Assembly: GCA_963831295.1 (NCBI GenBank)
Contig: CAWHPR010000003.1
Span: 387,746 to 451,745 of the forward strand
Reading direction: 5' to 3'
From: an uncultured Thermoleophilia bacterium
GTDB taxonomy: Bacteria > Actinomycetota > Thermoleophilia > UBA2241
Length of the DNA: 64,000 nucleotides
Shown here: one piece after another, positions 22,850 through 40,249 of the stretch
Position numbering within the stretch: the first letter of the stretch is position 1
Layout of the letters: each line of letters starts with the position of its first letter
Program-made: the position numbers and the translations under genes
Notes under the pieces: generated by a model
The model's database searches: none
What the model was told of the DNA's origin: nothing
The model's input: only the letters and a program-made list of their open reading frames with translations

Positions 22850-23773
22850 TCAGGCGCCGGCCGGCCCGTAGCAGGCGGCCGGCGCCAGGACGTCGGGGAA
22901 GCGGTCGCGCAGGGCGAGGCGCGTCTCGAAGCAGAGGTGGCAGGCGTCGGCGTAGCGCTCGCGCGCCGGCTTCGACGTCGTAGGCGCGGGCGAGCTCGAG
23001 CGGGCCGCCGCGGAGCAGCTCGCGCACGACCGGCAGGTCGTGCGGGTCGTAGCGCTCGACCACGGCGGCCAGGCCGTCGCGCCAGACGTTGCCGGCGCTG
23101 ATCCCCTGGCAGAGCTGCAGCTCGCCGTCGGGGCCGAGGTGGGCGCGCCCGGGCTCGACGAAGTCCTCGTGGGGGCACTCGGTGAAGGCGTCGGGCGGGC
23201 GGCCGTCGAGCTCGGCTCGCTCCGCGGCGAGCTCGACGGCCGCCCGCCCCTTGTACATGATCTCGCCGACGTCGCCGGTGCAGACGCCCGGCAGGTCGAG
23301 CATCGCTTCGGCGCCGACCTCGAGCAGGCCCATCGGCAGCTCGAGCTCGAGCGCCGCCTCGACGGCGTTGCGCAGCAGGCGCTCCTCGAGCTTGTCGCTC
23401 CTCGGCGAAGTACGCGTACGACGAGAGCGAGAGGTCGGCGACGCCGAGCTCCTTGAGCGGCGCGAGCCAGACCTTGGCGTCCTCGACCGACTCGGCCCAG
23501 TGGCAGTTGGTCACGACGCCGACGTCGAGGCCGCGCGCCCGTGCGTACCGCGCGGCCTCGAGCACGACCGGCCAGTACAGCGTGGGCTCGCCGCCCTCGA
23601 AGTAGACGGTGTCGATCGCGGGCACGTCGCGCGGTCTGGTCGATGGCGTCGCGGAGCTGCGCCAGCGTGAGCGTGCCCTCGGCCTCGGGCCCGCCGAAGA
23701 CGAAGCAGTGGTCGCAGGCGTAGATGCAGCGGTACGTGACGAGGAAGTGGATGGCGCTCAGCGACATCGGCAT
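22850..23773 (-). CDS. Radical SAM protein with SPASM/twitch-like C-terminal Cys motifs; 3 frameshifts
   Basis: MPMSLSAIHFLVTYRCIYACDHCFVFGGPE (CX3CX2C), then IDTVYFEGGEPTLYWP..GVVTNCHWA, then FTECPHEDFVEPGRAHLGPDGELQLCQGISAGNVW, then ERYADACHLCFETRLAL..-stop. These are pieces of ORFs 22850..23830, 22480..23625 and 22293..23333. Confidence 0.7.
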   Translation of the reverse strand: MPMSLSAIHFLVTYRCIYACDHCFVFGGPEAEGTLTLAQLRDAIDQTARRARDRHRLLRGRRAHAVLAGRARGRAVRTGARPRRRRRDQLPLGRVGRGRQGLARAAQGARRRRPLALVVRVLRRGATSSRSACCATPSRRRSSSSCRWACSRSAPKRCSTCRASAPATSARSCTRGGRPSSSPRSEPSSTAARPTPSPSAPTRTSSSPGAPTSAPTASCSSARGSAPATSGATAWPPWSSATTRTTCRSCASCSAAARSSSPAPTTSKPARERYADACHLCFETRLALRDRFPDVLAPAACYGPAGA

Positions 23774-23912
23774 GTGCGGCAGTATAGACGCGCCGGGCAG
23801 ACAAGGCAGGGAGCGCGTTCGTCGCGCCATGCCCTATCGGTCAGCCGGCGGGAGCGGCGGCGGGGCCGGCGGCGCGGCGCTCCGGTCGCACGATCCGGTT
23901 CAGACGCCGGCG

Positions 23913-25076
23913 CTACTTGTTGTGGCACTCCTCGCAGACGCCGCGGTCGTCGAGCCGGAGGAAGGCGTTCTTGGTGCCCGGCGGCACGGAGCCGTCGTCG
24001 CTGTCGGGCTCGGGATCGGTGGCGTCCGCGACGTCGGCGAAGCCGGTCATCACGGCGTCCGAGCCGTGGGCGCGATGGCAGGTGAGGCAGTCCATCCAGT
24101 CGTCGGTGCGCGCCTCGGGCGTCCACTCCCCGTACTCCTGGGCGAGCGGCAGCTGCAGGGCCTTGAGGCGGAGCGGACGAGCCCCGAGGTACTCGGCGAG
24201 AGGGACGTTCAAGGGGTGGCGGTAGCGCATGACGTCACCGAAGCCGTCCTCGGCGTCGTACCGGCTCGACGTGTCGAGATCGGCGCGGTGATACTCGGTG
24301 TGGCACGCCGCGCACCAGGCGCTGATCCCGCGCGTCCGGTCCTCGCCGGGAGCCTTGGCGTACATCGGCGTCGTGTAGTCGGGCTCGTACTCCGTCGATC
24401 TGCGCGGCGCCGGCGTCGTGCAGCAGCCAGCCCTCGTCCGGGTAGCCGGGCTCGTTGGAGATCACGAACGGGTCGGGGGCGTACTCGCCGGGGCCGGTCG
24501 CCACGTAGCCGCCCGACCTCGACGCCGTTCACGACGTCCTTGAGCAGGCGGTAGTTCGAGCTGCCGTGCACGTCGTGGCAGGAGCAGCAGGTCATGACGA
24601 CCGTCGCCCTCCCCGCCGCAGGGGCTCGCGAGCGTCGCCGTCACAGTTGTGGTGGTTGTCGCCGACGACGTGCGCGCCGAAGGCGCCTCCGTTGAGGGCG
24701 GCGCCGAGCGTCCCGTACCCGTCGGCCTCGTAGACACCGTCGTCGACGTTCGTCGCGGCGCCGGCCGCGTGCGCCGCCGTGACACGAGAAGCAGAACTGG
24801 CACGAGTCGTGTCTCGGTCCCGAGCAGGAGTGCGCGCCGTTGCTCGCCGGGTGTCGCTCCACGTGATGCTGCTGGCGGCCGTGTGCGCACGGTGGCACCC
24901 GGCGCAGGCGCCTGGGAGTCCATGGAGTAGCCGCCGTGGATCCCGAAGTTCGCGAGGGCAACGCCGGGGAGCAGGCACAGCACGCGGCGACGGCCGTCGA
25001 TGCCGAAGATGCGCAAGAGGGCCGGCGACGACCACCGCCGGCAGCCCGCGACAAGAGTACGCCCCAAGTACCCCAC
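23913..25076 (-). CDS. Hexahaem c-type cytochrome, OmcS-like, paralog A; at least 4 frameshifts in the N-terminal two thirds, start uncertain (GTG 25076 or TTG ~25008)
   Basis: Reconstructed as ..VLCLLPGVALANFGIHGGYSMDS..CAGCHRAHTAASSITWS..CQFCFSCHGGA..AGAATNVDDGVYEADGYGTLG..VMTCCSCHDVHGSSNYRLLKDVVNGVEVGGYV..EPGYPDEGWLLHDAGAAQI..ISAWCAACHTEYH..VMRYRHPLNV..DCLTCHRAHGSDAVMTGFADV..RGVCEECHNK-stop. It has six CXXCH motifs. Confidence 0.75.
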
Positions 25077-25299
25077 AGCCCCCGTGCTCCGTGCCCCGGC
25101 ACCGTGCCCCGGTACCGAGTGTACGGTCAGACGTTAGGGGCGTACGAGGAGGTTCGCAAGCATCTCGCGTGTACAAGTCTGTATACGGGGGCGCCGCCGA
25201 CGCGGTGCGGCACGACGAAGCCCGAAGCGCGGCCGCGGCACGCGAAGGGCGGCCGTCCGGGCGGGGCTCGAGCGGCACGGCGATGCGGGCAGCGAAGAC

Positions 25300-25328
25300 G
25301 GGAGGGCCGGGCATCGCCCGGCCCTCCC
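25300..25328 (-). terminator. Hairpin after OmcS-like gene B
   Basis: Perfect 13-bp stem gggagggccgggc / gcccggccctccc with a 3-nt loop, about 40 nt downstream of the stop at 25368. On the coding strand it is followed by gtcttcgc (poor U tract). Confidence 0.45.
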
Positions 25329-25367
25329 TCGTACACGCCTTCGGCGCGCCGTCGCTTGGCGCCGCCG

Positions 25368-26477
25368 CTACTTGTTGTGGCACTCCTCGCAGACACCGCG
25401 GTTGTCGAGCCGGAGGAACGCGTTCTTCGTGCCCGGCGGCACGGAGCCGTCGTCGCTGTCGGGCTCGGGGTCGGTGGCGTCGGCGACGTCGGCGAAGCCG
25501 CTCATCCGCCTTGTCCGAGCCGTGGGACTGGTGACAGGTGAGGCAGTCCAGCCAGTCGTTCGGGCCGGCCTCGAGGCGTCCAGTCTCCGTACTCCTGCGC
25601 GACGGGGAGCGTCAGGTTCGTGAGGTTGAGCGCGCGAGCGCCCGAGGTAGTCGCTGAGCGGGACGTTCACCGGGTGAGGGTAGCGCATGACGTCGCCGAG
25701 ACCGTCGTCGGCGTCGTACTGGCTCGGCCCACGTGCCGTGATATCTGGTGTGGCACGCCGCGCACCAGGCGCTGATGCCCTTGTCCGGGTCCTCATCGGG
25801 CGCCTTGGCGTACATCGGCGTCGTGTAGCTGGGCTCGTACGCCTCGATCTGCGCCGCACCGGCGTCGTGCAGCAGCCAGCCGTCCTCCGGGTAGCCGGGC
25901 TCGTTGGAGATCACGTACGGGTCGGGGAGGAAGTCGCCGCCGGCCGTCTCGACGTAGCCCCCGACGTCGACGCCGTTCACGACGTCCTTGAGCAGGCGGT
26001 AGTTGGAGCTGCCGTGCACGTCGTGGCAGGAGCCGCAGGTCATGACGATGTCGCCGTCACCGCCGTGGGCGGTCGACGGAGCTCCCGTCGTAGGTGTGGT
26101 GGTTCTCGCCGACGACGTCCTCGCTGAAGGCGCCGCTGTTGAGCTCAGCGCCGAGCGTGCCGTAGTCGCTAGCCTCGTAGACGCCGTCGAAGACGTTCGT
26201 CGCGGCGCCGGCAGCAGCGCTGCCGTGGCAGGTGAAGCAGAATTCGTAGAGCTCGGTCGCGGTCGACAGCAGGAGCGCGCTGCTGCTGCTCGCTCGCCGA
26301 GTTCGTCCACGTGATGCTGCTGGCGGCGGTGTGCGCGCGGTGGCAGCCGGCGCACGTGTGGGTGTCCATGGAGTAGCCGCCGTGGATGCCGAAGTTCGCA
26401 AGGGCGATGCCGGGGGTCAGGAGCAGCACGGACGCGCTGGCTGCCACTGCCAGTATCGAGTCGAGACGTTTCCGCAC
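25368..26477 (-). CDS. Hexahaem c-type cytochrome, OmcS-like, paralog B; at least 5 frameshifts
   Basis: GTG 26477 follows GAGGGGGAAAC. Reconstructed as VRKRLDSILAVAASASVLLLTPGIALANFGIHGGYSMDTHTCAGCHRAHTAASSITWT..LYEFCFTCHGSAAAGAATNVFDGVYEASDYGTLG..IVMTCGSCHDVHGSSNYRLLKDVVNGVDVGGYV..ISAWCAACHTRYH..VMRYPHPVNV..DCLTCHQSHGSDK..GFADVADATDPEPDSDDGSVPPGTKNAFLRLDNRGVCEECHNK-stop. Confidence 0.75.
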
Positions 26478-26594
26478 GTTTCCCCCTCGCACTTCTGCGG
26501 GTCTATCGGTGTTCATCTGGGCGGCGGTGCGATCACCACAAGACAAGCGACCAGCCGGAACTGCCAACACGGGCGCCCCTCGGCGCATGTGCGC

Positions 26595-26623
26595 ATTATA
26601 GGGTCACCACACTAGGGTGACAA
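26595..26623 (-). promoter_or_regulatory. Near-consensus sigma-70-type promoter (TTGTCA-N17-TATAAT) in front of OmcS-like gene B
   Basis: On the minus strand the sequence reads TTGTCA ccctagtgtggtgaccc TATAAT, starting 3 nt after the NHL gene's stop codon (26626-26628). It sits in a locally AT-richer patch and also contains GTCACC..GGTGAC dyad symmetry. The predicted leader to GTG 26477 is ~110 nt. Confidence 0.5.
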
Positions 26624-26625
26624 CA

Positions 26626-28191
26626 TTACGCGCCGCGGCCTCGCGTGTGCTCGCGACCCGACCGCCCCTTGTCGAGGAAGCGCTCCACGAACAGCCGCGC
26701 GTCGTACGCGTCCACTCCCAAAGCCCGAGCGGTCGAGGCCAGCGAGGGGGCCTGCGTGCACAGCGTCCCGGCGCGCCTGGCGACGGTGAGCAGCACCGCG
26801 GTCGGGTGCTCCACGCCGATCCGCTCCATGAGGTCCTTGGCATCGGACTCCGAGTGCGCCTGGGCGGTCAGGAGCGCGTCGAGAGACACCCCGCCGAGCT
26901 CGCGACCCTCGTAGCGAGGGGACTCCTCGGCGGGCACGATCCACATCCAGCGCCTTCTGGACCACGCCCAGCGCGTCCCGGCCTCCATGTACTCGATGAG
27001 GCCGGCGACGGTCATCGCCTCGAGGAAGTCCTCGGTGACCACGAAGCGGCGGCGGCGGAGCAGCAGCAGCAGCGGCAGGAGCAACAGACTCAGCAGAGGC
27101 CAGAGGACGGGCCCGTCGGATATCTCCGAGACGATGGACTGCGGTTCGGGCCACCCCCACACCTGCACCCGACCATTGACGCGATCGGTGAGGTAGATGA
27201 AGCCGCGCCGGTCGAGCGCGAGGTCGTTGGCGAAACGGAACTGGCCCGGGCCGGCGCCCGGGCCGCCGAAGCTGGCGATACGCTCGCCGGACGCGCGGTA
27301 GACGTCTGCCTGGTGCGCGAGCGCGTCGGCCACGTAGAGGCGGCCCTGGTCGTCCATGTCGAGACCGCGCGGGATCCCCGACGTGTTGATGACGCGATCG
27401 AAGTCTCCCTGCTCGCTGAAGACCTGGACCCGCTGGTTGTTGCTGTCGGCCACGTACACGACGCCCTTGCGTACGACGAGGCCGTTGGGGAACAGGAACC
27501 TGCCGGGCACGTCGGTCACCCGCTCGGCCTGCCCCGACCCCCCGAACCGCCGGATCTCGTCGCCCTCTCGATCGAACTCGATGACCTGGTGGAGGTCGCT
27601 GCGGCCCACGTCGCTCACCCAGAGGTTGTCGTCCTCGTCGAAGGCCAAGGCGAGGGGGCCCCACACTGCGGCCTCGTCGGCGTCGGCGGGTGCGACCTTG
27701 CGCAGGTACTCCCCGTCGGCCGAGAACACGTAGACGGCGCGGTGGCCGCGGTCGCTGACGAAGACCTCCCCGATCGAGTTCAGCTCGACGTAGACGGGCG
27801 TGGTGAGGGCGGTCCTGTCGCCGTCGGCGATCTCGGAGAACGAGAAACGGTAGTCGCCCTCGACGGTGTAGACGCGGACCGCTCCGGCGGCCGCGTCGGT
27901 GACGTACACGAGGTCGTCCGCGGACACGTCGACGCCGAGCGGCTGGGTGAGCGCGTCGCGGCCCCCAGGCCCGCTGATCGAGTACAGGTACTCAGGGGGC
28001 GAGACGATCCCTCCGGCGCCGAGGATCGGACCCGGGGCCGACGTGTCGCGGGAGCTGTTGTAGTAGTAGATGGCGCAGAGCGTCAGCACGAGCAGGAGGA
28101 GGGCGGCGAGAAGCGCGACGATCTTGCGCCGCGACGTCCTGCGCTCGGCCCTGCCGAACGGCCCCTGCTCGTGCTGTGCGTCGGTCGCCAT
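26626..28191 (-). CDS. NHL-repeat beta-propeller membrane protein (TM - NHL repeats - TM - ~170-aa cytoplasmic domain), intact
   Basis: The ATG at 28191 is preceded by GGAG. TM1 is KIVALLAALLLLVLTLCAIYYY. Repeated blades: LVYVTDAAAGAVRVY, VFVSDRGHRAVYVF, LWVSDVGRSDLHQVIEF, VYVADSNNQRVQVF, LYVADALAHQADVY, IYLTDRVNGRVQVW. TM2 is VLWPLLSLLLLPLLLLL, followed by RRRRFVVTEDFLEAM... Confidence 0.8.
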   Translation of the reverse strand: MATDAQHEQGPFGRAERRTSRRKIVALLAALLLLVLTLCAIYYYNSSRDTSAPGPILGAGGIVSPPEYLYSISGPGGRDALTQPLGVDVSADDLVYVTDAAAGAVRVYTVEGDYRFSFSEIADGDRTALTTPVYVELNSIGEVFVSDRGHRAVYVFSADGEYLRKVAPADADEAAVWGPLALAFDEDDNLWVSDVGRSDLHQVIEFDREGDEIRRFGGSGQAERVTDVPGRFLFPNGLVVRKGVVYVADSNNQRVQVFSEQGDFDRVINTSGIPRGLDMDDQGRLYVADALAHQADVYRASGERIASFGGPGAGPGQFRFANDLALDRRGFIYLTDRVNGRVQVWGWPEPQSIVSEISDGPVLWPLLSLLLLPLLLLLRRRRFVVTEDFLEAMTVAGLIEYMEAGTRWAWSRRRWMWIVPAEESPRYEGRELGGVSLDALLTAQAHSESDAKDLMERIGVEHPTAVLLTVARRAGTLCTQAPSLASTARALGVDAYDARLFVERFLDKGRSGREHTRGRGA

Positions 28192-28199
28192 GGGCTCCG

Positions 28200-29207
28200 T
28201 CAGTCCTCGGCCTGAAGGCGCTTGAGCGCGGCGACGGCCTCGGGCTCGTCGGGCCACAGGGCGAGCACCTTCTGCCAGGCCTCTTCAGCCGAGCCGGGGT
28301 CGCCCGTACGCAGGTAGAGCTTGGCGACCAGCTTGGCGGCGGCCGGGCTGCCGGGGTCGAGGGCGCGGGCCACTCGGGCCTCGACGAGCGCGGCCGAAGC
28401 GTCGGTCTTGGCCAGCCGTCTCGCGGCGGCGAAGCGCTCCTCGAACGGCCCCAGCCGGACGAGCTCATCGCCCGGCTCCGTGATCCCCTCGGGAGCGTTG
28501 TCGGCCGAGGTGCGGAAGTGCTCGGCTGCTCCGGCGACGTCGTCGTCGGCGAGCAGCAGCAGACCGTAGTCGTAGTTGGCCTCGGGCATCAGCGGGTCGA
28601 ACATGAGCGCCCTCTCGAGGTGGAGACGCTGGTTGGCGACCGAGGCGCGTTCGCGATATGCGACCGCGAGCGCGTAGTGCGTGTCCGCGGCGGTGCGGCG
28701 GATCTTCAGCGCTTCGTGCAGGTACTTGACCGCCTCTCTGTACTTCTCGCGTTCGATGAGCGTCACGCCGAGCTGATGGTAGGCCACGGCGAGGCGCTGG
28801 TCGAGGCCGGCATACTGCCCCGTCCCGATCTCACCGACGACGCGGCGCCAGTACTCCTCGGCGCTCTCCCACTCGCCCTCGTACATGGCGATGAGGCCGA
28901 GACCCGTGAGCGCGTCGGGGTTGTTCTCGTCGAGTTCGAGCACGACGCCGAACTGCTCGATGGCGTCGTCGACCTGGCCGGCCGCGGCGTAGGCCTCGGC
29001 GAGCGTCAGCCGCAAGCTGAGGTCGTTGGGGTTCTCCTCGATGGCGGCGATGAGGTCTGTGATGACTCTGGACGCCGCCGCCGATTCGCGCTCCCGCGAC
29101 TGTTCCGTGAGGACGGTGTAGGCGAGATACCCGATGGCGACCACGGCCAGCAGCACGACCACTTTGAGGGCCACGTCGATCCACCGCGTGTCCCGCAGGG
29201 CCCTCAC
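28200..29207 (-). CDS. Membrane-anchored TPR-repeat protein, intact
   Basis: 335-aa ORF with N-terminal TM WIDVALKVVVLLAVVAIGYLAYTVL, followed by TPR-like helices (LAEAYAAAGQVDDAIEQFGVVLELDENNPDAL.., AVAYHQLGVTLIEREKYREAVKYLHEALKI..). Confidence 0.8.
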   Translation of the reverse strand: MRALRDTRWIDVALKVVVLLAVVAIGYLAYTVLTEQSRERESAAASRVITDLIAAIEENPNDLSLRLTLAEAYAAAGQVDDAIEQFGVVLELDENNPDALTGLGLIAMYEGEWESAEEYWRRVVGEIGTGQYAGLDQRLAVAYHQLGVTLIEREKYREAVKYLHEALKIRRTAADTHYALAVAYRERASVANQRLHLERALMFDPLMPEANYDYGLLLLADDDVAGAAEHFRTSADNAPEGITEPGDELVRLGPFEERFAAARRLAKTDASAALVEARVARALDPGSPAAAKLVAKLYLRTGDPGSAEEAWQKVLALWPDEPEAVAALKRLQAED

Positions 29208-29253
29208 GCGTCGCTCGTCACGTCGGCAAAGGCATGACCCGTCGCGAGGGCGA

Positions 29254-30852
29254 TCACAGGTGCGGCCCGGTGTGACAGCGCTTGCACAGGTCGGATCCCG
29301 GCCACGGCGCGATCTGGTCGCCGCGGGAGTCCGCGGCGCCGTGGCAGTCGTAGCAGATGCGGATGTCGTGCCCCCCGATCTCGGCGGACTGCTGACCGGC
29401 GTGCTGTACCCGCGCCGCCGTCAGCTTGAGATGGCAGTCGTCGCAGCGGTGCGGCCTGCCGACGTGTTCTTCGACATCGAAGTGCGCGGCGTGCTCGGCG
29501 AGCTTCGCCACCTTGATCTCACTGGGCCGTCTGCGCATCTCGGGATGACAGTTCACGCAGTTCTCGGCCCGCAACTCCTGACTGCGGTCGGGATCGTGGT
29601 GGCACTCCTGACACCAGTTGCGGTCCGAGTGGCACACGCCGCAGTCGTCGGGCATGAAGCCGCTGGACGTGTGCGACGCGAGCCAGGTCGTCGGGTGCGG
29701 CATGACAGTCGGGTGGCACCGGCTGCACGACTCGTTCGTGTGGCAGATCGAGCACGTGGCTTCTCCGCTGAGAAGGAACGGCTCGCCGTGCTCGGCCATC
29801 CACGCGGCGGTCTGGTGGTCGTCGGGGATCACCTCTTTGCTGTACGAGCCGTCCGGCAGCCGCTTCTCGCTGCGGTGACACTCCGCGCAGAACGCCGAAG
29901 CGTGGCAGGTCGTGCAGTCGAGCAGGTCCTCGGCGCCCGGCTTGCGGTGACTGCTCGCGATGAACGCCGCCGTGTGATCGGCCGGCACGAGCTCGAAGCC
30001 CGGCGGATGACACGCCCCGCACTCGTCGGGAGCGGCCTCGCCGTCCTCGGTGTGCTGAACGCCGTGGCAGCGATAGCACGACGACATGTCGGGGCGGTCG
30101 GTGGCGCCGGCGCGGTGCGGGAACCTCTCGTGGCACACCTCGCAATCGTAGTCGCGTTCGAAGTGCACGGCGTGCGTGAAGAGCAGGCCGTCCCCCTCGC
30201 TCCTGTCGATGTCGGGGTGGCAGAAGACGCACTGCCCCATCGTGACAGGCCCGTCCACACTGATCGTGAGGGGCGGCCGCGACTCGGGCAGGGGGACGTT
30301 GCGCAGATAGCCCGGTGCGGCAAGCGGCGTGTCGACCCCCTGTTCCCTGTGGCAGGCATCGCAGTGCGCGCGCGCCTCGTGGCACATCATGCAGCCGTTC
30401 GAGCCTCCGCGCTCCACGGCGCCGGCGTGCGGCTCCTCGGTCCAGTCCTCGCTGTGATCCGCGGGCCTGAGCTCGAAGGCCTGCGTGTGGCAGGTGTCGC
30501 ACGAGTCGGCGGCCATGACGCCGTCGGAACCGTGAACGAGCCCGTGACAGGCGAAGCACGTCTCCATCGGCGGCACGTGCGTTGCGCCGCCCTCGTGCGC
30601 CGAACGCACGTGGCACACGCTGCAGTCGACGGTGGCGTGCGCATCGTGTGCGAAGACGAGGCCGGGGTCGCGAGACTCGGCGATGCGCTGGTGACAGGGA
30701 CTGCACGACTCGATGCGCACCGGGCCGGTCAGATCGATCTCGGTGGGCTGTGTCGCGCCCACGCCCGGCTGCAGCGTGCCGGCCAGCACGACGACGACGA
30801 CGGCGATGGCGGTCGCCGCTGTCAGGTACGCGTGTCGGCGGGTCGGTCGCAT
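29254..30852 (-). CDS. Multihaem c-type cytochrome with 20 CXXCH motifs, N-terminal membrane anchor/signal, intact
   Basis: 532-aa ORF. I count 20 CXXCH motifs: CSPCH, CSVCH, CFACH, CDTCH, CMMCH, CDACH, CVFCH, CEVCH, CYRCH, CGACH, CTTCH, CAECH, CSICH, CSRCH, CGVCH, CQECH, CVNCH, CDDCH, CYDCH, CKRCH. The N-terminus is MRPTRRHAYLTAATAIAVVVVVLAG. Confidence 0.9.
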   Translation of the reverse strand: MRPTRRHAYLTAATAIAVVVVVLAGTLQPGVGATQPTEIDLTGPVRIESCSPCHQRIAESRDPGLVFAHDAHATVDCSVCHVRSAHEGGATHVPPMETCFACHGLVHGSDGVMAADSCDTCHTQAFELRPADHSEDWTEEPHAGAVERGGSNGCMMCHEARAHCDACHREQGVDTPLAAPGYLRNVPLPESRPPLTISVDGPVTMGQCVFCHPDIDRSEGDGLLFTHAVHFERDYDCEVCHERFPHRAGATDRPDMSSCYRCHGVQHTEDGEAAPDECGACHPPGFELVPADHTAAFIASSHRKPGAEDLLDCTTCHASAFCAECHRSEKRLPDGSYSKEVIPDDHQTAAWMAEHGEPFLLSGEATCSICHTNESCSRCHPTVMPHPTTWLASHTSSGFMPDDCGVCHSDRNWCQECHHDPDRSQELRAENCVNCHPEMRRRPSEIKVAKLAEHAAHFDVEEHVGRPHRCDDCHLKLTAARVQHAGQQSAEIGGHDIRICYDCHGAADSRGDQIAPWPGSDLCKRCHTGPHL

Positions 30853-30874
30853 ACGTCCCTGCGGGCGGCCCGGT

Positions 30875-31745
30875 CTATCCGCCGAACAGTCCGGCGATGG
30901 CGCCCCCGACCCACTTGAGGGTCGAGTAGAGCGGGTTGGCCTCGAGCACGTCGCGCTTGCCGTGGATCAACTCGGTGTACTCGAGGAAGCCCTCGTTGAC
31001 GTCACCCTTGTGACAGGCGCCGCACGTGTCCGCCAGCCGGCTCTGGTGAACAGGCGACCGGGGATCGGACGACGGGTAGACGTCATGGTAGCCGTGGCAG
31101 TCCCAGCACGCCGGTGCGTCTGTTGCTCCCCGACGGTACGCGCGCCCGTGGTAGTAGTCGTCGTAGCTGTTCCACTCGTCTTCGTGGCACCTGCCGCAGA
31201 CCTCCCAGCCGTCGGCGTGCAGGGCGCGGCGGCCTTCTGGGCTGTCCGCGAGCGCGACGACGCCGTGGCTGCCGTGGCAGTCACCGCAGAGCGGGAACTC
31301 GGCTCCTTCGGGGACGGCGCCGGCATGGTCCTCGACCTTGCCCCGGTGGACGCTGGCCCAGTATGCGCGGCTCTCTTGCTGATGGCAGTTCTTGCAGGCC
31401 AGGCGTGAAACGTGGTCCCAGTTCTCGGACGGCTGGGTGTGCGGCGCCGTGAAGGCGAAGTCGATGTGACAGCCGATGCACTGCACGTCCGCGTGCGGGC
31501 TGGCCGCGAGCTCGTCGGTGTCGACGTAGTAGCTCACGATCTCTCCGCCCTCCGGCCGGACCGAGGTCCTCGTCGTCATGGCAGACGAGGCATCCGGCCC
31601 GCGACGCCGTGGGCAGCGTGAAGTCGACGTCGTATCCGCCGACCTGAGGATCGGTGTCACCGCTCTCGGCGAGCGCCGGGGTCGCCGACGAGAGCGCCAT
31701 CACGCACGCCAGGGCGACGAGCAGGAGCATCTTGCGGGTCGTCAT
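30875..31745 (-). CDS. Heptahaem c-type cytochrome with signal peptide and C-terminal hydrophobic anchor (CbcA-like); 1 frameshift near 31560
   Basis: MTTRKMLLLVALACVMALSSATPALAES..CLVCH (ORF 31281..31745) joins ORF 30875..31660 (CIGCH, CKNCH, CGDCH, CGRCH, CWDCH, CGACH), ending ..LKWVGGAIAGLFGG-stop. ATGA overlap with the cytochrome b stop. Confidence 0.8.
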
Positions 31746-32761
31746 TCGGTGTCACCTGCAGACGGCCCGCTCACGTGCGTCGACTGCATCGGCGTCAGGA
31801 CCCCCACCTTCTGACGCGAGTCTTGGTGTGGTGGCTGGACGTGAGTCGGAGCGGGTGCCGGGTGCGACTGCTCCTCAGGGCGGCTGTCGCCGGGCGTTCC
31901 TTGCGACTCCTGCGACGCGCGCCGGGACGGTCGCGAGCGCTTCAGGATGCCGAAGAAGTCACGGACCGCGGGGAAGTCCTCAGTCACGCAGAGGTACGCA
32001 TGGACGGTCGTGAGGATGATGAACAGCCACGTGATCGCGTAGTGGAGGGAGCGCGCGTACCATCCGGCGAGGTCGGTCGAGCCCACGAGCGCGCCAAGCC
32101 ACCAGCCGAGCAGCAGGTCGCGCGGGCTGTAGCCGAAGATGAACGGCGTGACGACGAGCGAGAATCCCGTGAGCGCCTGCAGGGTCATGAGCGGCACGAA
32201 CAGGATGTACGTGGCCTTCTGCATGACGTTGTACTTGCAGAGATGCGGTTTCGAGCTCTTGATGAACACGTAGTAGAGGGCGCACTTGGGCGCCGAGCAG
32301 ACATCCTGCTTCGTGATGGCGAACTCCTTGTAGTCACGCCGCTTCGAGAAGAACGCGCACCATATGCGCCACGCGAAGTTGACCGTGACGACGATCATGA
32401 ACACGTAGTGGACGCCGCGCATCGCGCTGCGGCCGCCGTCGAAGAACGGGAAGCGGATGTAGAGACCGGTGAATCCCAGCGCGAACATCGAGAACACGTG
32501 CTGGAAGTGCAGGAACTTGTTGAGGAGTGGGATCGGCGGCCCGTCGTGGTCGGGCCACTGCTTGTTCACGTACCGGGCCTTGAGGCGCCCGGTGAGCAGG
32601 TTGCCGACGAGGTGCGCCGACAACGCGGCGACGACGAGCACGTACAGCGTGGTGAAGCCGACATCGAGCCAGACGTTCAGTTCTGACAGTGGTATTACTG
32701 ACCCCCCCTCGGGTGTCCGCCCATAATACCGCGTCCGGAGTGCTCCAGGGCCCCGACGCAC
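31742..32761 (-). CDS. Membrane b-type cytochrome (PhsC / formate-dehydrogenase gamma / Ni-Fe hydrogenase cytochrome b family; CbcB-like)
   Basis: Polytopic protein with conserved His residues in TM helices (LNKFLHFQHVFSMFALGFTGLYIRFPFF, RGVHYVFMIVVTVNFAWRIW, SLHYAITWLFIILTTVHAY). The listed GTG 32761 lies inside a strong hairpin. An alternative start is an ATA codon at 32695, which sits 6 nt after GAGGGGGGG. Confidence 0.75.
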   Translation of the reverse strand: MRRGPGALRTRYYGRTPEGGSVIPLSELNVWLDVGFTTLYVLVVAALSAHLVGNLLTGRLKARYVNKQWPDHDGPPIPLLNKFLHFQHVFSMFALGFTGLYIRFPFFDGGRSAMRGVHYVFMIVVTVNFAWRIWCAFFSKRRDYKEFAITKQDVCSAPKCALYYVFIKSSKPHLCKYNVMQKATYILFVPLMTLQALTGFSLVVTPFIFGYSPRDLLLGWWLGALVGSTDLAGWYARSLHYAITWLFIILTTVHAYLCVTEDFPAVRDFFGILKRSRPSRRASQESQGTPGDSRPEEQSHPAPAPTHVQPPHQDSRQKVGVLTPMQSTHVSGPSAGDTE

Positions 32762-32788
32762 TCGTCAGCACGCTTCGGGGCCCTGGAG
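32743..32788. other. Perfect 14-bp inverted repeat (hairpin) between the S9 peptidase gene and the cytochrome cluster
   Basis: ctccagggccccga - 18 nt - tcggggccctggag. It lies 78 nt downstream of the S9 peptidase stop and is followed on the minus strand by TATTAT (32728-32723). Confidence 0.5.
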
Positions 32789-32865
32789 CAGCGCTGCGCC
32801 CACGCGCCGACGGGCGTGTGCCTTCTGCAACGCTCGCCACTCTGAAGGGTTACAGGCGAGCGAGG

Positions 32866-34961
32866 TCAGCCCAGGTTCTCGACCTCCACCGGGTCGATGA
32901 CATCGGCCGGCGTGAAGCCGAGGACCTGCCCGTAGAACGAGAGCTCGGCCTCGAGGCTGCGCACGATGTTCTCGGCCTTGCGGAAACCGTGCTGCTCGCC
33001 CTCGAAGGTGAGATAGGCGTACGGCAGGTGGTTGCGGCGCAGGGCGGCGACGATGATCTCCGCCTGCGCGGGAGGCACGATGGCGTCCTCGAGACCCTGC
33101 AGGACGATGACCGGGCAGCGAAGGCCGTCGACGTGGTGGATCGGCGAGCGCTCGCGGTAGATGTCGATCCGCTCCGGATAGGGACCGACGAGCTGGACGA
33201 GGTAGCGCTCCTCGAACTTGTGGGTGCCACCACCGACGAACATCTCGAGGTCGGCGAGGCCGAAGTAGGAGGCGCCGGCGGCGAAGACGTCGTGGCGCGT
33301 CAGCGCGTTGAGCGTCGTGTAGCCGCCGGCACTGCCGCCGCGGATCGCGAGCCGTTCCGGATCCGCGTCTCCGCGCCCGGCGAGGAACCGCGCCGCATTG
33401 ATGCAGTCGACCGTGTCGACGACGCCCCAGTTGCTCTTGAGCCGGTCGCGATAGCGCGCGGCCGTAGCCGGAGGAGCCGCCGTAGTTCACGTCGACGACG
33501 GCGAAGCCGCGCGAGGTCCAGTACTGGATGGAGAGGCTGAGCGTGGCTTCGGCCGCCGCGGTCGGGCCGCCGTGGCTGATGACGAGCAGCGGCGGCCGCC
33601 CGCCCGGCGCCACGACGTCGGGGTTGTGCGGTGCGTAGTAGAGGGCGTGGGCCGTGAGCGGAGCGGTCTCGTCGCACAGCGGCCCCGTCACCGATCCGGG
33701 CTCGTACGAGGTCGGGAACTCGATGGACCGCGGCACGGACAGGTACGCCGCGGACGGCTCCCACGAAAGGCTCGAGCGCACGGTCTCGACCGCGCCGCTC
33801 TCGGGGTCCACGAGAGCGACGCGGGCGGCCAGCGTCGGCGCCGCCGCCGACGACGCCGAGCCGGTCGCCGACCGCGACGAGAGAGGAGATGCTGGTGAGC
33901 TCGCAGTCGAGTTCGCGGACGTCGCCGCCCTGCTCGATCACGACGAGGCGGTCGAGGCCGTCGCGGCTGCAGAACGCCGCCAGCCTGCCGTCCGGCAGGA
34001 ACACGGCGTTCTGCAGTCCGAACACCCAGTGCGGCTTGGCGAACTCGGCGGCCATCGGGAGGAGCGGGGCGGCCGGAGGCGCGGGTGGCGGTGTGACTGC
34101 CGAGCCGTCGCCGGGCGTGTCACCGGCCGCGCGGTTCAACGCCTCCGCGAGCTCGTCGGGTCCGATGCGGTACAGGTTCCACCATCCGCTGCGGTCGCTG
34201 ACGAAGAGCAGGCCGCCGTCGGGCGCCCAGAGCGGCTGCACGACCGACTCCTGCTCGCCGCCGGCCACTCGTACCGCCGCCGTCTGGTCGCCGTCCTCAC
34301 CGAGCGCGGCGACCCAGAGCTCGGTGCCGTCCCAGGGCATGCGTGGGTGGTCCCAGCAGAGGCGGGCGAGCAGGCCGCCGTCGGGGCTCGGGCGCGGGCT
34401 CGAGAAGAAGTCGTGCCCCGAGGCCACGACGAGCGGTTCGCGCCCGCCCTCGGCCGGCAGCGTGACGATGTCGTTCACCACTCCCGTGTCGAGGTGACGC
34501 TCCCGGACGCTGAAGAACGACCGGCGGTCCGCCGCCACGCGACCGTCGGCGTAGCGGGTCGCTCGCGGCGCCGGCGGCGCGGCCGTGAGCGGCCACGGGG
34601 CGCTCCAGAGGGCCGCGCGTCCGCGCGATCCGGTATCGTCCAGGTCCTGCCGGTAGAGCCGTTGATCTTCGAGCTCGCTGAAGATGACCGACTCGCCGCC
34701 GTCCACCCGGGCGAAGGCCTCGTACATCCCGCCGCCGTACTCGTGCACCAGGGTCCTTGCGGCCCAGTCGCCGGGGGTCACGTCGGCGATGCGGCCGTCG
34801 GGCGCGCGGCGTACGACCACGTAGCGTCCGCTCTCCCTGGGCCTCATCTCCACCCAGAACAGGGTCTCGCCGATCGCCTGCGGCCAGCCGAGGGCGATGG
34901 CGCCCTCGGCGACACGGGTCGCCGTGATCGGTGAACGCCAGGAGCCGTACGGAGCCTTCAC
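32866..34961 (-). CDS. S9 family (prolyl oligopeptidase / dipeptidyl aminopeptidase-like) serine peptidase; 2 frameshifts (near 33830 and 33470)
   Basis: N-terminal beta-propeller part: [28 protein letters not shown] (ORF 33300..34961). Then ..[32 protein letters not shown] (ORF 32765..33811). Then ..[13 protein letters not shown] (GxSxGG nucleophile) and ..[24 protein letters not shown] (ORF 32866..33243). Confidence 0.85.
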
Positions 34962-35066
34962 GAAGCCCTCCTCGCAGGTGGACGCCGGGGATCGCCGGAA
35001 CGGGAAGAGCCTACCGCCCTGGGGCCTGGAGGAGTACCATGAATGCAGCGTCTCCAGGGGAGAGTG

Positions 35067-35180
35067 ATGAAACGAGTGCTGCCCAGGCCGAACGCCGCGT
35101 GCTGCATCGCCATCTTCACGGCTGTGTCGGCGCTGATCATGGTGCTGGCGCTCTGCGCCTCCTGCATCTTCCCTGACTGA
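35067..35180 (+). CDS. Possible 37-aa Cys-rich hydrophobic peptide (below the ORF-track size cutoff)
   Basis: ATG 35067 follows GGGGAGAG. The sequence is MKRVLPRPNAACCIAIFTAVSALIMVLALCASCIFPD-stop (TGA 35178-35180). It lies in the 275-bp gap between two minus-strand genes. Confidence 0.25.
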   Translation: MKRVLPRPNAACCIAIFTAVSALIMVLALCASCIFPD

Positions 35181-35236
35181 CGATTTGCGTCGCTCGATCG
35201 CGCTCGCGCGGAGTCCCGTGCTCTACGGCCGACCGC

Positions 35237-37642
35237 CTACGCCCTGCCGTCCGTGTCTGTGCGGCCGTCTTGGTTGCGGCCGCGCCCTATCCTGAAGACG
35301 TGGTGCGAGCGCGCGCTGCGCGCGAAGTCGAGCGGCAGCGTCGAGCGTGACAGGTCCGTGACCTCGAGGCCGGCGAGGGCACCAGCGTCGAGCTCGAAGT
35401 CGCGTCGGTTGCTCGAGAAGAGCAAGATGCCGTCCGGCGCGAGGAAGCGACGTACGACCATGCGCACGAGGTCGGCGTGGTCGCGCTGCGCGTCGAAGGT
35501 CGCCCCTCCCATGCGCGCCGAGTTGCTGAAGGTCGGCGGGTCGAGCCAGATGAGGTCGAACTCGCCGCCCACCTCGGCGATCCAGCGCAGGCCGTCGGCC
35601 TGTACGAGGAGGTGGCGCGCGGCGGCCGGCGGCCCCGCGCGCCTGCCCGCGGGTCGCGGGTCGGGCCGGCGTTCGCGGCCGGGTGCGGCCGGCGACCGGA
35701 CCGGCGACTCGGCCGCAGGCCAGCGTTCGAGCGCCACGCCGCCGATCCCGTTAGCCGCCAGGTTGCGCTCGGCCCACTCGAGGTAGGTGCGCGAGAGGTC
35801 GACGCTCACGCTCGACAGCGCCCCGCCCGCCACCGCGCTGACCGTGGTCGCGGCGGTGTAGGCGAACAGGTTCAGGAAGCGGCGGCCGCCGGCCAGCGAG
35901 CGCACGAGCCGGCGCGTCTCGCGCTGGTCGAGGAAGAGGCCGGTGTCGAGGTAGTCCGTGAGGTTGACGAGGTAGGTGAGGTCGTCCTCCTCGACGGGGA
36001 TGAGGTCGCCGCCGGCAGCGCGGCGCTCGTACTGCGCCGCACCGCGCTGCCGGCGGCGCTGCTTGACGACCACGTGCGCCTGGTCGACGCCCACCGTGTC
36101 GGACACGATCGTCACGGCTCGCGCGAGGCGTGCGGCGGCGAGCTCGGGCGGGACCTCGCGCGGCGGCGCGTACTCCTGCACGTGCGCCCAGTCGTCGTAC
36201 ACGTCGACGGCGAGGTTGTAGTCGGGCAGGTCGGCGTCGTAGAGGCGGTAGCAGGCGATGCCCTGGCGGCGCATGGTCCGCCCGATGTGGCGGAGGTCGC
36301 GGCGCAGGCGGTTGGCGAACTGCTCGGCGCCGGCGTCGAGGGATCGGTCCGGCACGGATGCGGCCAGCGCGGAGGTGGCCGGCGCGGAGGTGGCCGGCGC
36401 GGACTGCTCGCCGCCCGTCGCCGACGAACGCGCCGCCGGCCGCTCGCCTCGCGTCTCGTCGTGCCGCCCTCCGACGATGAGCCGGCAGCGGATCGGTCCG
36501 TTCGAGAGCTGTGGTCCGGCGGAGCCGACGCCGAGGAGTCGCGCGGCGCCGGGGTGGGCCGAGAGCACTGCGGTCTTCCACCCTCCGAACTCGGTGCGCA
36601 GGCGCTCGCCGAGGAGCTCGTAGAGGCGCTCCAGATCGCGTCGCTCGCCGAGACGCTCGCCGTAGGGCGGGTTGCAGGCGACGAGGCCGGCGGGGATCTG
36701 CGGCGGCGCAGCCAGCGCGGCGAGTTCGGAGCGCTCGATCGCGACGAGGCCCTGAAGGCCGGCGCGCTCGACGCAGGCGCGGGCGATGCGCACCGCGGCG
36801 GCATCGTGGTCGGAGCCGAGGAAGACGGGTGGGCGGCGGAGCGCCGCGAGACGGGCGAGGCCCGCCTCGCGGCGCTCCGCCGCCTCGTCGACGAGCCCGC
36901 GCCACACGGCCTCGTCGTGTCCGCGCCAGCGCAAGAACCCGAAGCCGCCCTTCTCGACGCGGCTGACGAGCCCGGGCGCGATGTCGGCGGCCGTGAGCGC
37001 CGCCTCGATCGGCAGCGTCCCCGATCCGCACAGCGGGTCGACGAAGGAGCCGTCACGGGCGGCCAGAGCGGGCCAGCCGGTCAGCGCGAGGATCGCGGCC
37101 GCCAGGTTCTCCTTGAGCGGCGCCTCGACCTGCACGCGCTCGGCGCGATAGCCGCGGCGGTGCAGGCTCTCGCCCGAGAGGTCGAGGGACAGCGCGGCGC
37201 GGTCGGCCTCGAGGTGCACGTTCACGCGCACGTCGGGCGTGTGCGTGTCGACCGACGGGCGGGAGCCGGTCGCGGCACGGATCTGGTCGACGATCGCGTC
37301 CTTGGTCTTGAGGGCTCCGAAGCGCGTGTCACGGATCGTCTCGCTCGTGCCGGTGAAGTTCACCGCAAGGGTGGAGGCAGGACCGAGGTGGTCGCTCCAG
37401 TCCACGGTCTGGACGCCCGCGTACAGCTGGTCGGCCGAACCGGCGGGGAAGCGCGCAAGGTGGAGAAGCACCCGGGTGGCCAGCCGCGACCAGAGGCAGG
37501 CGCGGTAGCCGGTCGCCAAGGGGCCCCCGAAAGAGACGCCGCCGCGAGCCTCGCGGACGTGCTCGCCGCCGAGGGTGCGGAGCTCGCTCGCGAGGACTCG
37601 TTCGACGCCACGCGGCGTCGTCGCGAAGAACGTCAGGTCCAC
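35237..37642 (-). CDS. rlmL: Bifunctional 23S rRNA methyltransferase RlmKL (THUMP + two SAM-methyltransferase domains), intact
   Basis: 801-aa ORF with FATTPRGVERVLASEL.., APLKENLAAAIL.., DPLCGSGTLPIEAA.., LVACNPPYGERLG.., YRLYDADLPDYNLAVDVY.., FLNLFAYTAATTV.., WLDPPTFSNS. Confidence 0.85.
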   Translation of the reverse strand: MDLTFFATTPRGVERVLASELRTLGGEHVREARGGVSFGGPLATGYRACLWSRLATRVLLHLARFPAGSADQLYAGVQTVDWSDHLGPASTLAVNFTGTSETIRDTRFGALKTKDAIVDQIRAATGSRPSVDTHTPDVRVNVHLEADRAALSLDLSGESLHRRGYRAERVQVEAPLKENLAAAILALTGWPALAARDGSFVDPLCGSGTLPIEAALTAADIAPGLVSRVEKGGFGFLRWRGHDEAVWRGLVDEAAERREAGLARLAALRRPPVFLGSDHDAAAVRIARACVERAGLQGLVAIERSELAALAAPPQIPAGLVACNPPYGERLGERRDLERLYELLGERLRTEFGGWKTAVLSAHPGAARLLGVGSAGPQLSNGPIRCRLIVGGRHDETRGERPAARSSATGGEQSAPATSAPATSALAASVPDRSLDAGAEQFANRLRRDLRHIGRTMRRQGIACYRLYDADLPDYNLAVDVYDDWAHVQEYAPPREVPPELAAARLARAVTIVSDTVGVDQAHVVVKQRRRQRGAAQYERRAAGGDLIPVEEDDLTYLVNLTDYLDTGLFLDQRETRRLVRSLAGGRRFLNLFAYTAATTVSAVAGGALSSVSVDLSRTYLEWAERNLAANGIGGVALERWPAAESPVRSPAAPGRERRPDPRPAGRRAGPPAAARHLLVQADGLRWIAEVGGEFDLIWLDPPTFSNSARMGGATFDAQRDHADLVRMVVRRFLAPDGILLFSSNRRDFELDAGALAGLEVTDLSRSTLPLDFARSARSHHVFRIGRGRNQDGRTDTDGRA

Positions 37643-37791
37643 GCGGCAACGCTACCATGTGCGGGACGGCTCGCCCCCGCGGGGTACGCCCTGGCGTGGA
37701 GCCGGCGAACGGCGAACGGCGAACGGAGGCGAAGTGGCTCGGGCGGCGATCATCGTCCCGCCGCCGGCGTCTCGACCATGAGGAGGTCACC

Positions 37792-38238
37792 GTGAAGTAT
37801 GCGAGCGCCAGGCTCGGTCGCGCCTTGGTCGTCCGTCTCGAGGATGGCGACGTCGTGCACGAGTCGATAGAGGAGGCGGCGCGGGCCGTGGGCATCAGCC
37901 GCGCCGCCGTGCTGCTGCTGGGCGGCGTCGACGACGGCAGCCTCGTGGTCGTGGGTCCGGAGCAGGGGAGAGCGGAGACCATCGTGCCGATGGAGCGAGT
38001 GCTGCGGGGCGCTCACGAGGCCGCCGGCGTCGGCACGATCTTCCCGGACGAGACGGGCCGGCCGGTGCTCCACCTGCACGCGGCCTTCGGTCGCGACGAC
38101 AAGGTCGTCGCCGGCTGCATTCGCAAGGGCGTGCTCACCTGGGTCGTCGGCGAGGTGATCGTCCTCGAGCTGCTCGACAGCGCGGCCGAGCGGCGGGTGG
38201 ACCCGGCGACCGGCTTCGAGCTGCTCGACCTCTCCTAG
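37792..38238 (+). CDS. PPC/DUF296 domain protein
   Basis: GTG 37792 lies 5 nt after GAGGAGG. Sequence: LGRALVVRLEDGDVVHESIEEAARAVGISRAAVLLLGGV..HLHAAFG..VVAGCIRKG..VGEVIVLEL. Confidence 0.7.
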   Translation: MKYASARLGRALVVRLEDGDVVHESIEEAARAVGISRAAVLLLGGVDDGSLVVVGPEQGRAETIVPMERVLRGAHEAAGVGTIFPDETGRPVLHLHAAFGRDDKVVAGCIRKGVLTWVVGEVIVLELLDSAAERRVDPATGFELLDLS

Positions 38239-38316
38239 CGTTCGTCCGGGCGCCCCTCGGCCGGCAGGGCGGCGCGCGCCCAGCGGGGCGACGGCAGGAT
38301 GCCCGTGCCGGCCTCC

Positions 38317-40231
38317 CTAGGCGTCGTCGTGCCCGGCGATGGCCTCGAGGAAGGCGTCGCCGTAGCGCTCGAGCTTGGCCTGACCGACCCCGTTCACGGC
38401 GAGCAGATCGACATTCGTGCGAGGCCTGCGCGCCGCCATCTCCGCCAGCGTCGCGTCGCTGAAGACCACGTAGGCGGGCACGCGCCGCTCGTCGGCGAGG
38501 CGCTTGCGCAGGGCGCGGAGGCGCGCGAAGAGGGCCTCGTCGACCTCGAGGTCGGCGAGGCCGGCCACGCGCGCCACCCGCTCCGCGGCCAGACGCTGCT
38601 TCTTCGTGGGGACCCTCGTGCGCGGCTTGGCGAGCACGAGCCGCTCCTCGCCGTTGAGCAGATCCCGGGCCTTGGGCGTGAGGCACAGGGCCGAGTAGCG
38701 GGCGATGTCCTGCACGAGGTAGCCGCGGTGGACGAGCTGACGGATGAGGCTCATCCAGTGATCCCGGCCGACGTCGGCGCCGATCCCGTAGGTGCTGAGC
38801 CGGTCGTGGCCGCAGCGCAGGACCTTCTCGCTCTCGCTGCCGCGCAGCACGTCGACCACGTGCGCCGATGCCGAAGCGCTGCCCCGTGCGGTAGACGCAG
38901 CTCAGGGCCATCTGTGCGTGCTCGGTCGCGTCGTAGGTCTCGGGAGGATCGAGGCAGACGTCGCAGTTGCCGCAGTCGTGGCCGAGCTCCTCGCCGAAGT
39001 AGCCGAGGAGCGCGCGCCGGCGGCAGGAGCGCGCTTCGGCAAGGCCGACCATCGCGTTCAGCTTGTGCAGCTCGATGCGGACCTGCTCGGGGTCGCGCTC
39101 GTACTCGGGCGCGCCGTTGCCGCCGCGCCCGCCGCCCTCGATGAGCGAGCGCACGACGGCGGCGTCGCCGAGGCCGAAGAGGAGCAGGGCCTCGGCCGGC
39201 AGGCCGTCGCGCCCCGCCCGCCCCGTCTCCTGGTAGTAGCTCTCGATCGTCTTGGGCAGGTCGTAGTGGACGACGAAGCGCACGTTGCTCTTGTCGATGC
39301 CCATGCCGAACGCGACCGTGGCCACGACGACGAGGACGTCGTCGCGGGCGAAGGCATCCTGCACGCGCCGGCGCTCGGGTGCGGGCAGGCCGGCGTGGTA
39401 GGCCGCGGCCGAGACGCCGGCCGCGGCCAGCCTGCCGGCCACCTCTTCGGTGCGCTTGCGCGAGAGGCAGTAGACGATGCCGGATTCGCCCTCGTGCACG
39501 GCGAGGAAGGCCTGGAGCTGACGCAACGGCTCGCGCTTCTCGACGACCGTGTAGCGGATGTTCGGGCGGTCGAACCCGGTGACGAACACCGGGGCGTCGG
39601 CGAGCCCGAGGCGCAGGCGCACATCGTCGCGGGTCTGCGGGTCGGCCGTCGCCGTGCAGGCGAGTACGGGGACGCCGGGGAAGAGCCCGCGCAGCTCGCC
39701 GAGCTGCACGTACTCGGGGCGGAAGTCGTGCCCCCACTGGCTGACGCAGTGGGCCTCGTCGATGGCGAAGAGGGCGATGCCGGCGTCGCTGCCTTCGCCC
39801 CCGCCGAGACTTCGCAGCCGCTCGAGGAACGAGGCGGTCATCAGGGTCTCGGGGGCGACGTAGAGCAGGTCGAGCTCGCCGCTGTGGAGCTGTGCCAGCA
39901 CGCGGCGGGCCTCGTCCCCATCGAGAGACGAGTTGTAGGCGGCGGCACTGACGCCGGCCGCCCGCAGCGCGTCGACCTGGTCCTTCATGAGTGAGATGAG
40001 CGGGGAGACGACGATGCCGGCGCCCGGGCGCAGCAGGGCCGGCAGCTGGTAGCAGAGCGACTTGCCGCCGCCCGTCGGCATGAGGACGAAGGCGTCGCCG
40101 CCTCCGGCGAGGTGCTCGACGATCTCGCGCTGGTGCGGCCGGAACTCGCGGAAGCCGAAGACGTCGCGCAGCAGGCCGGAGGCGCTGCGCGGAGCGAGGC
40201 GGGGCGGCGTGGAAGTGGGGTCGGGCGTCAC
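38317..40231 (-). CDS. recQ: ATP-dependent DNA helicase RecQ; 1 frameshift near 38860
   Basis: FGFREFRPHQREIVEH..LMPTGGGKSLCYQLPAL..AIDEAHCVSQWGHDFRPEY..ACTATA..VATVAFGMGIDKSNVRFVVHYDLP..YYQETGRAGRDG..CGNCDVC. Then an HRDC-containing tail in ORF 38317..38859 (AYVVFSDATLAEMA..LLAVNGVGQAKLERYG). Confidence 0.9.
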
Positions 40232-40249
40232 CGTCCGAGTCTAACAAGG

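Follow-up and report, generated by a model that had tools for sequence, protein, structure and literature searches.

In Geobacter, multihaem cytochromes c are joined to cytochromes b of the inner membrane in more than one way. CbcBA (GSU0593/0594), a proposed inner-membrane quinol oxidoreductase, is a two-gene module consisting of a PF01292 dihaem cytochrome b and a heptahaem cytochrome c. CbcB has four helices and CbcA ends in a transmembrane (TM) helix that contains a histidine (bioRxiv 10.1101/2021.04.15.440034). CbcL (GSU0274 family), for which quinol oxidation in extracellular electron transfer has been proposed, is one polypeptide with nine haems c located N-terminally to a fused b domain of six TM helices. 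CbcBA homologues have been reported in several phyla, Actinobacteria not among them (bioRxiv 10.1101/2021.04.15.440034), and a 2018 survey recorded no CbcL homologue in Actinobacteria (PMC6295460). Our literature search for a link between CbcBA and actinobacterial classes found nothing relevant. The exit of electrons from the quinone pool toward extracellular acceptors is poorly known in Gram-positive-type bacteria, among whose iron reducers a membrane-linked multihaem protein has been proposed as quinol oxidase (PMC7829351, PMC9686372). Here we describe a cytochrome b gene and a heptahaem cytochrome c gene that head a cytochrome cluster in an uncultured Thermoleophilia bacterium. They are found in a stretch of 64,000 nucleotides (GenBank assembly GCA_963831295.1, contig CAWHPR010000003.1, positions 387,746 to 451,745), hereafter the window. 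All genes of the cluster discussed below are on the minus strand of the window.

The sequence makes it probable that the pair encodes, in a monoderm actinobacterium, a two-subunit bc-type menaquinol:multihaem-cytochrome oxidoreductase that supplies an extracellular electron transfer chain. The b subunit would be a dihaem cytochrome b of the FdnI/HyaC type with a fifth, N-terminal helix (TM0) carrying an invariant histidine. The c subunit would be exported by the Sec route, bind seven bis-histidine haems and lie against the b subunit on its outer side, where it would be held through protein contacts, probably including a short C-terminal amphipathic helix. Menaquinol would be oxidised by the b subunit, the two b haems would carry the electrons across the membrane, and the heptahaem chain would pass them to the 20-haem cytochrome encoded next and then to the cluster's OmcS-like hexahaem cytochromes. 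By analogy, the module probably does the job of CbcBA, CbcL and ImcH in Geobacter, without being orthologous to CbcBA. As ranked by similarity, it is a separate combination, in which the c subunit most resembles the haem domain of CbcL and the b subunit most resembles hydrogenase-type cytochrome b. The initial annotation had proposed that the pair was the entry point of the cluster from the quinone pool, and this functional idea is supported by invariant histidine ligands, by seven CXXCH motifs with seven distal histidines and by the conservation of a coupled gene pair.

The Geobacter reference set consisted of G. hydrogenophilus and four other Geobacterales genomes, not G. sulfurreducens. In G. 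hydrogenophilus, CbcA, CbcB, their sigma-54 regulator, CbcL and the hydrogenase operon were assigned by architecture and context. The assignment of CbcA is backed by PDB entry 28pb_A, whose sequence identifies it as a CbcA orthologue's soluble domain (E-value 5e-159 against G. hydrogenophilus CbcA).

The open reading frame (ORF) of the cytochrome b gene (31742-32761, minus strand) is intact and matched the Pfam family PF01292 (Ni_hydr_CYTB) with an E-value of 2.4e-16. The listed start of this ORF, a GTG at 32761 yielding 339 amino acids, was not conserved. We compared it with L001, a fully syntenic contig in which every gene is intact and whose DNA is ~91-93% identical to the window. Homologues begin 2-4 residues ahead of an I-x-L-x-x-L-N-V-W motif, and upstream of this point no canonical start was present in L001. 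At the point itself, GAGGGGG and a 6-nucleotide spacer are followed by ATA in the window (32695) or by ATT in L001. Given the L001 comparison, the N-termini of the homologues and the spacing from GAGGGGG, the gene probably starts at the non-canonical ATA at 32695, and thus spans 31742-32695 and encodes 317 amino acids. In this region (window 32693-32712), the G run of the window exceeded that of L001 by two bases.

Both hydropathy and AlphaFold2 (AF2) predicted five helices in the cytochrome b, located by AF2 at residues 3-34, 57-81, 89-116, 152-179 and 207-247. The model had a mean predicted local distance difference test score (pLDDT) of 69, with scores of 80-88 in the TM core. The final ~65 residues (window 31745-31936) were predicted to be disordered (pLDDT < 50). 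This tail is rich in proline, serine and glutamine and differs in length and sequence between homologues. FdnI (1kqf chain C) was the top Foldseek match of the model, with a probability of 1.0, and HyaC (4gd3) was the top sequence match in PDB. Among NCBIfam families, the protein reached 67.1 bits with hydrogenase cytochrome b (TIGR02125), below the cut-off of 121.5, and 16.9 bits with formate dehydrogenase gamma (TIGR01583), below the cut-off of 115.85. The initial annotation had described a polytopic b-type cytochrome of the PhsC/formate-dehydrogenase gamma family. The polytopic cytochrome b is confirmed by the PF01292 and FdnI matches, while the formate dehydrogenase gamma score, in a comparison that included no PhsC reference sequence, does not bear out the narrower assignment.

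The four-helix FdnI/HyaC-type core (31955-32527, minus strand) contains the bis-histidine ligand set, with His63 in TM1, His96 in TM2 and His218 and His232 in TM4, 14 residues apart. The same spacing of the two TM4 histidines is found in FdnI. All four canonical haem-b ligands were invariant in an alignment of 22 sequences, among them those of Geobacter CbcB and of hydrogenase cytochrome b, which answers the initial annotation's question about the histidines of the TM helices. Within the cytochrome b family, His66, His50 and His151 are likewise invariant. Ahead of the core lies TM0 (residues 3-34; 32594-32689, minus strand), an extra N-terminal TM helix recognised in alignments, hydropathy and the AF2 model. 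It is conserved across the family alignment and bears His28, invariant in the family, after which come a basic cytoplasmic loop and an invariant W-P-x-H. TM0 is missing from Geobacter CbcB and from hydrogenase cytochrome b, whose hhalign alignments with the family begin only at residue 59-60.

The heptahaem cytochrome c gene follows immediately, the TGA of the cytochrome b gene overlapping its ATG in an ATGA (31742-31745, minus strand), as the initial annotation had noted. An identical 4-nucleotide overlap of the two genes was present in L001 and in another relative, L002. In the window, the heptahaem gene is in two parts. The 5′ part (31563-31745, minus strand), recovered from ORF 31281-31745 and by tblastn of L001 residues 1-61, encodes a Sec signal peptide (MTTRKMLLLVALACVMALSSATPALA|E, with the cleavage site ALA|E) and the first haem motif, CLVCH. 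The 3′ part (30875-31561, minus strand), delimited by ORFs, motif scan and tblastn, encodes motifs 2-7 (CIGCH, CKNCH, CGDCH, CGRCH, CWDCH and CGACH) and the distal histidine ligands and ends in a TAG stop. All seven CXXCH motifs are located between 31592 and 31024. The parts are separated by a frameshift at 31561-31562 (minus strand), where the window has GG and L001 a single G (CTC-G-GTC versus CTC-GTC), as seen in the blastn indel list and in the change of frame in tblastn. The signal peptide and CLVCH are in the frame of 31745-31563, and downstream of the site the gene continues in the +1 frame, in which motifs 2-7 (frame of 31561-30878) and the C-terminal end, ...LKWVGGAIAGLFGG, are read. 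The seven motifs are thus split 1 + 6. Across the same position the L001 sequence, DDEDLVRLEGGEIVSYYVD, is intact, and its protein of 289 amino acids reads ...CLVCHDDEDLVRLEGGEIVSYYVD... without interruption. The gene is intact also in L002, the intact versions in L001 and L002 having 289-293 amino acids. The secreted 7-CXXCH cytochrome of the initial annotation therefore has its signal peptide and its seven motifs, though not in one frame, and the frameshift had gone unremarked.

The family alignment of the heptahaem protein contained seven further invariant histidines besides those of the seven CXXCH motifs, which suffices for seven bis-histidine haems. In about a third of the family the seventh motif is CX4CH or CX5CH and not CXXCH. 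Lipoprotein anchoring of the subunit was considered and rejected, as the signal-peptide cysteine is neither conserved nor in a lipobox context. The C-terminal 20 residues, NPLYSTLKWVGGAIAGLFGG (30878-30937, minus strand), have the family motif NPL...R.AI.GLFGG and are predicted to form an amphipathic helix, from counts of hydropathy and charge and from AF2, which placed a helix at residues 271-288 with a pLDDT of 75-82. After the last CXXCH, the best 19-residue Kyte-Doolittle mean of 21 homologues ranged from -0.01 to 1.5, versus 2.0 in the tail of CbcA. Their final 22 residues included 2-6 charged residues and, in 19 of the 21, no histidine. Past the last distal histidine, the tail aligned with CbcL where the first TM helix of the latter begins. 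Since its hydropathy is under the level of a membrane helix, it has 2-6 charges and it mostly lacks histidine, the tail is best described, as far as can be predicted, as a conserved short amphipathic helix and not the hydrophobic membrane anchor that the initial annotation had taken it for.

Downstream of the heptahaem gene are genes for a 20-haem protein, a TPR protein and an NHL-repeat protein, then two hexahaem genes and a radical SAM gene. The last members of the cluster are OmcS-like hexahaem cytochromes. The order of b, 7-haem, 20-haem, TPR, NHL and hexahaem genes was common to L001, L002 and L119, the last being a complete genome from another class-level lineage of Actinomycetota. The L119 cluster has an additional multihaem gene and an exported molybdoenzyme with a Tat signal, together with an iron-sulphur (FeS) subunit with a TM tail. 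The additional gene (L119:11044-12285, 413 amino acids) lies between the heptahaem and 20-haem genes. The C-terminal half of its product is paralogous to the heptahaem protein, down to the tail ...HKK...LLRLVGSILGGRD. The molybdopterin oxidoreductase and FeS subunit genes (L119:2156-6468) are located between the NHL and OmcS-like genes. The molybdopterin oxidoreductase is split into ORFs of 227 and 915 amino acids, and this may mark a selenocysteine codon.

We surveyed the distribution of the cytochrome b family in an evenly drawn sample of 300 Actinomycetota genomes. It was found in 22 genomes besides this one, 16 of which possessed the TM0 form. In 13 of these 16 the heptahaem gene was directly downstream on the same strand, and in the remaining three a heptahaem-like domain was encoded on the opposite strand, within about 1.5 kb. 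The family was present in ten other families of the phylum and absent from all 21 genomes listed for the window's own class. This patchy distribution suggests patchy inheritance or lateral transfer. Short relatives without TM0 occur in other Actinomycetota and were considered as possible hydrogenase anchors; the single neighbourhood examined contained TatC and a CcmH-like TPR gene and no hydrogenase. The TM0 form might still derive from a hydrogenase anchor. A conserved, translationally coupled pair of b and heptahaem genes heads cytochrome clusters in several anaerobic families of Actinomycetota, which makes it a concrete candidate for the exit step from the quinone pool.

Menaquinone synthesis in this genome is supported by a gene of the futalosine pathway, MqnA/D (209 bits). 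As the MenB match fell below its cut-off, the futalosine marker is the only support for it. Two further loci with haem motifs were seen in the same genome outside the window. At G000:C3:58574-61237, a 12-haem cytochrome of 347 amino acids is encoded right behind a small polytopic membrane protein with histidines, which matches PF01292 weakly, and the two may be a second b + c module. At G000:C4:90770-98281, about 4 kb from the MqnA/D gene, 40 CXXCH motifs occur on one strand. The cytochrome b of the pair is the assembly's sole PF01292 match above the cut-off.

The alternative that survives best, though we consider it unlikely, retains the whole architecture and reverses the flow, so that electrons from outside (from Fe(II), a cathode or a partner organism) would reduce menaquinone, as has been proposed for the CbcL homologues MtoC and MtrH. 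Nothing in the sequence fixes the direction, and cytochromes b of the FdnI and HyaC types are normally quinone reducers. Reverse flow is further supported by the c subunit, since it is nearest to CbcL, and the MtoC/MtrH proteins of Fe(II) oxidisers belong to the CbcL family (PMC6295460). Against it, related clusters are found in Anaerosomatales, an order with a cultured obligate Fe(III) reducer, for whose cytochrome clusters a role in Fe(III) reduction has been proposed (PMC9686372). The cluster in the window also finishes with OmcS-like hexahaem cytochromes, which in Geobacter are of the outward-transfer type.

That the pair is a true orthologue of CbcBA, the low-potential quinol oxidoreductase working near the thermodynamic limit and needed for respiring acceptors near -0.2 V, is a still weaker proposition, although it was the match made in the initial annotation. 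The general make-up is alike, with a PF01292 dihaem b and a 7-haem c. The four b-haem histidines and the first six c haems align, and the proposed role is the same. The c family is detectably homologous to CbcA (28pb_A was its best PDB match, E-value 1.5e-4; hhalign 98.1%, E-value 1.4e-13 over the first six haems), and hhalign also aligned the b family with CbcB (95.6%, E-value 1.3e-8). However, other Geobacter proteins ranked higher for both subunits. The heptahaem profile gave 54-77 bits plus a second stretch with CbcL-type ORFs and 29-36 bits with CbcA-type ORFs, the former outscoring the latter in all five Geobacterales genomes. With CbcL, hhalign reached 99.5% and an E-value of 5e-23 over 196 columns, with all seven haems aligned, and BLASTP of the heptahaem protein gave an E-value of 1e-22. 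The cytochrome b profile found only hydrogenase-linked cytochrome b in the five genomes and did not detect CbcB at E ≤ 1e-3, and in hhalign hydrogenase cytochrome b had an E-value of 4.6e-12. Reciprocal tblastn into this genome agreed with the ranking of CbcL and hydrogenase cytochrome b, and CbcB had no match there at E ≤ 0.01. The architectures differ as well. CbcA has an insertion of ~95 amino acids ahead of haem 7 and a strongly hydrophobic C-terminal TM helix with a histidine, both lacking in the heptahaem protein, and the b subunit has five helices, not the four of CbcB. The gene order here is b then c, whereas G. hydrogenophilus has cbcA then cbcB with a divergent sigma-54 activator. 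No sigma-54 activator domain was found among the genes of syntenic L001, and there was no BccR-type control nearby.

We regard it as similarly improbable that the heptahaem gene has been genuinely inactivated and that the module is decaying. The frameshift is present in the deposited sequence, and several other genes of the cluster are likewise broken by indels, including both hexahaem genes and the radical SAM gene (23629, 23395 and 22974). However, housekeeping genes outside the cluster, RecQ (e.g. at 38863) and an S9 peptidase (33837 and 33455), are broken alike. Over 19 kb (window 22000-41000) the comparison with L001 gave 53 indels of a length not divisible by 3, mostly 1-nucleotide insertions of G or C. 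The assembly comprises 1.73 Mb in four contigs and its estimated completeness is just 57%. Over its long part, the broken heptahaem gene retains 97% protein identity to the intact L001 version. On account of the intact relatives, the dozens of single-base indels that also affect housekeeping genes and the low completeness, the frameshift is most likely an assembly error. The indel pattern resembles that of an unpolished long-read assembly. With so many single-base indels, gene breaks in this assembly are not to be taken for biology.

Least probable of all is that the cytochrome b anchors some other periplasmic-side enzyme (hydrogenase, formate dehydrogenase or thiosulfate/polysulfide reductase) and has the heptahaem gene as a mere neighbour: its nearest named families are indeed hydrogenase cytochrome b and FdnI, and the L119 cluster does include an exported molybdoenzyme with an FeS subunit, yet its scores are far under the cut-offs of TIGR02125 and TIGR01583, its gene overlaps the heptahaem gene and is adjacent to it in most TM0-form genomes, and the partner enzymes whose presence elsewhere in the genome the initial annotation had named as part of a refutation were not found, the assembly having no detected [NiFe] hydrogenase subunits and no exported molybdoenzyme, its sole PF00384 protein being cytoplasmic and FdhA-like.

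Several points weigh against our preferred reading of the pair as a menaquinol:multihaem-cytochrome oxidoreductase. Sequence does not show whether quinol is oxidised or which way the electrons flow. For the heptahaem subunit the AF2 model was poor (pLDDT 51.8), which leaves its fold and its docking to the b subunit tentative. No PF01578 cytochrome c maturation gene (CcsA/ResC/CcmF) was detected in the assembly, despite well over 100 clustered CXXCH motifs. We tentatively attribute the absence to the poor state of the assembly; it would be a problem were the assembly complete. The frameshift is part of the deposited sequence, and the indels by which we explain it are unevenly spread, with none in the 5 kb past it that encode the 20-haem, TPR and NHL proteins. 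Finally, given the absence of the b family from the listed genomes of the class, the cluster may be a recent acquisition in this lineage.

Compared with HyaC/HydC (TIGR02125; PDB 4gd3) and FdnI (PDB 1kqf chain C), the b subunit has a common fold and pattern of haem ligands, and these are its nearest named sequence families, although the scores stay below the equivalog cut-offs. It differs in having cytochromes as neighbours and in lacking a partner of the hydrogenase or formate dehydrogenase kind. In these two enzymes, the C-terminal anchor of the partner subunit adds the fifth helix to the bundle, whereas here the fifth helix, TM0, belongs to the cytochrome b itself. In the G. hydrogenophilus sequences, the anchor helix of the partner carries a histidine both in hydrogenase and in CbcA. 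Because the out-to-in orientation is alike and His28 lies at a depth similar to that of the tail histidine of CbcA and the hydrogenase small subunit, TM0 may, by analogy, stand in for the anchor helix given by the partner in hydrogenase, formate dehydrogenase and CbcBA. More tentatively, the pair could represent an undescribed class of menaquinol:multihaem-cytochrome oxidoreductase for monoderms, in which TM0 builds the anchor helix of the partner into the b subunit and the heptahaem subunit keeps a short interfacial helix; such a class might be the standard membrane entry for OmcS-like clusters in anaerobic Actinomycetota.

The Gram-positive iron reducers Carboxydothermus ferrireducens (PMC7829351) and the Anaerosomatales isolates (PMC9686372) are likewise anaerobic monoderms, and NHL and TPR proteins are encoded in their cytochrome clusters. 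The cluster of L119, the closest homologue from a complete genome, resembles the molybdoenzyme-containing cluster of Parvivirga, as compared by description only. Annotation in the two papers was by best BLAST hit, and they describe no pair of a 5-TM cytochrome b and a CbcL-like heptahaem cytochrome.

Among Geobacter proteins, the heptahaem protein is most closely related to the haem c domain of CbcL, represented by the G. hydrogenophilus orthologue of 618 amino acids (L099:3829-5685). The seven heptahaem motifs align to CbcL motifs 1-3 and 6-9, and the role proposed for CbcL is that which we suggest for the pair. Unlike the fused CbcL, the module has a separate 7-haem c, whose gene follows that of a PF01292 cytochrome b with five TM helices. 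CbcL's own b domain matches PF01292 just marginally (21-22 bits), and the cytochrome b described here had no significant similarity to it. CbcL itself also matched the CbcA structure (E-value 4e-6), which indicates that the haem domains of CbcL, CbcA and the heptahaem family share one heptahaem core. This core appears to have been combined with a different b partner in each of the three.

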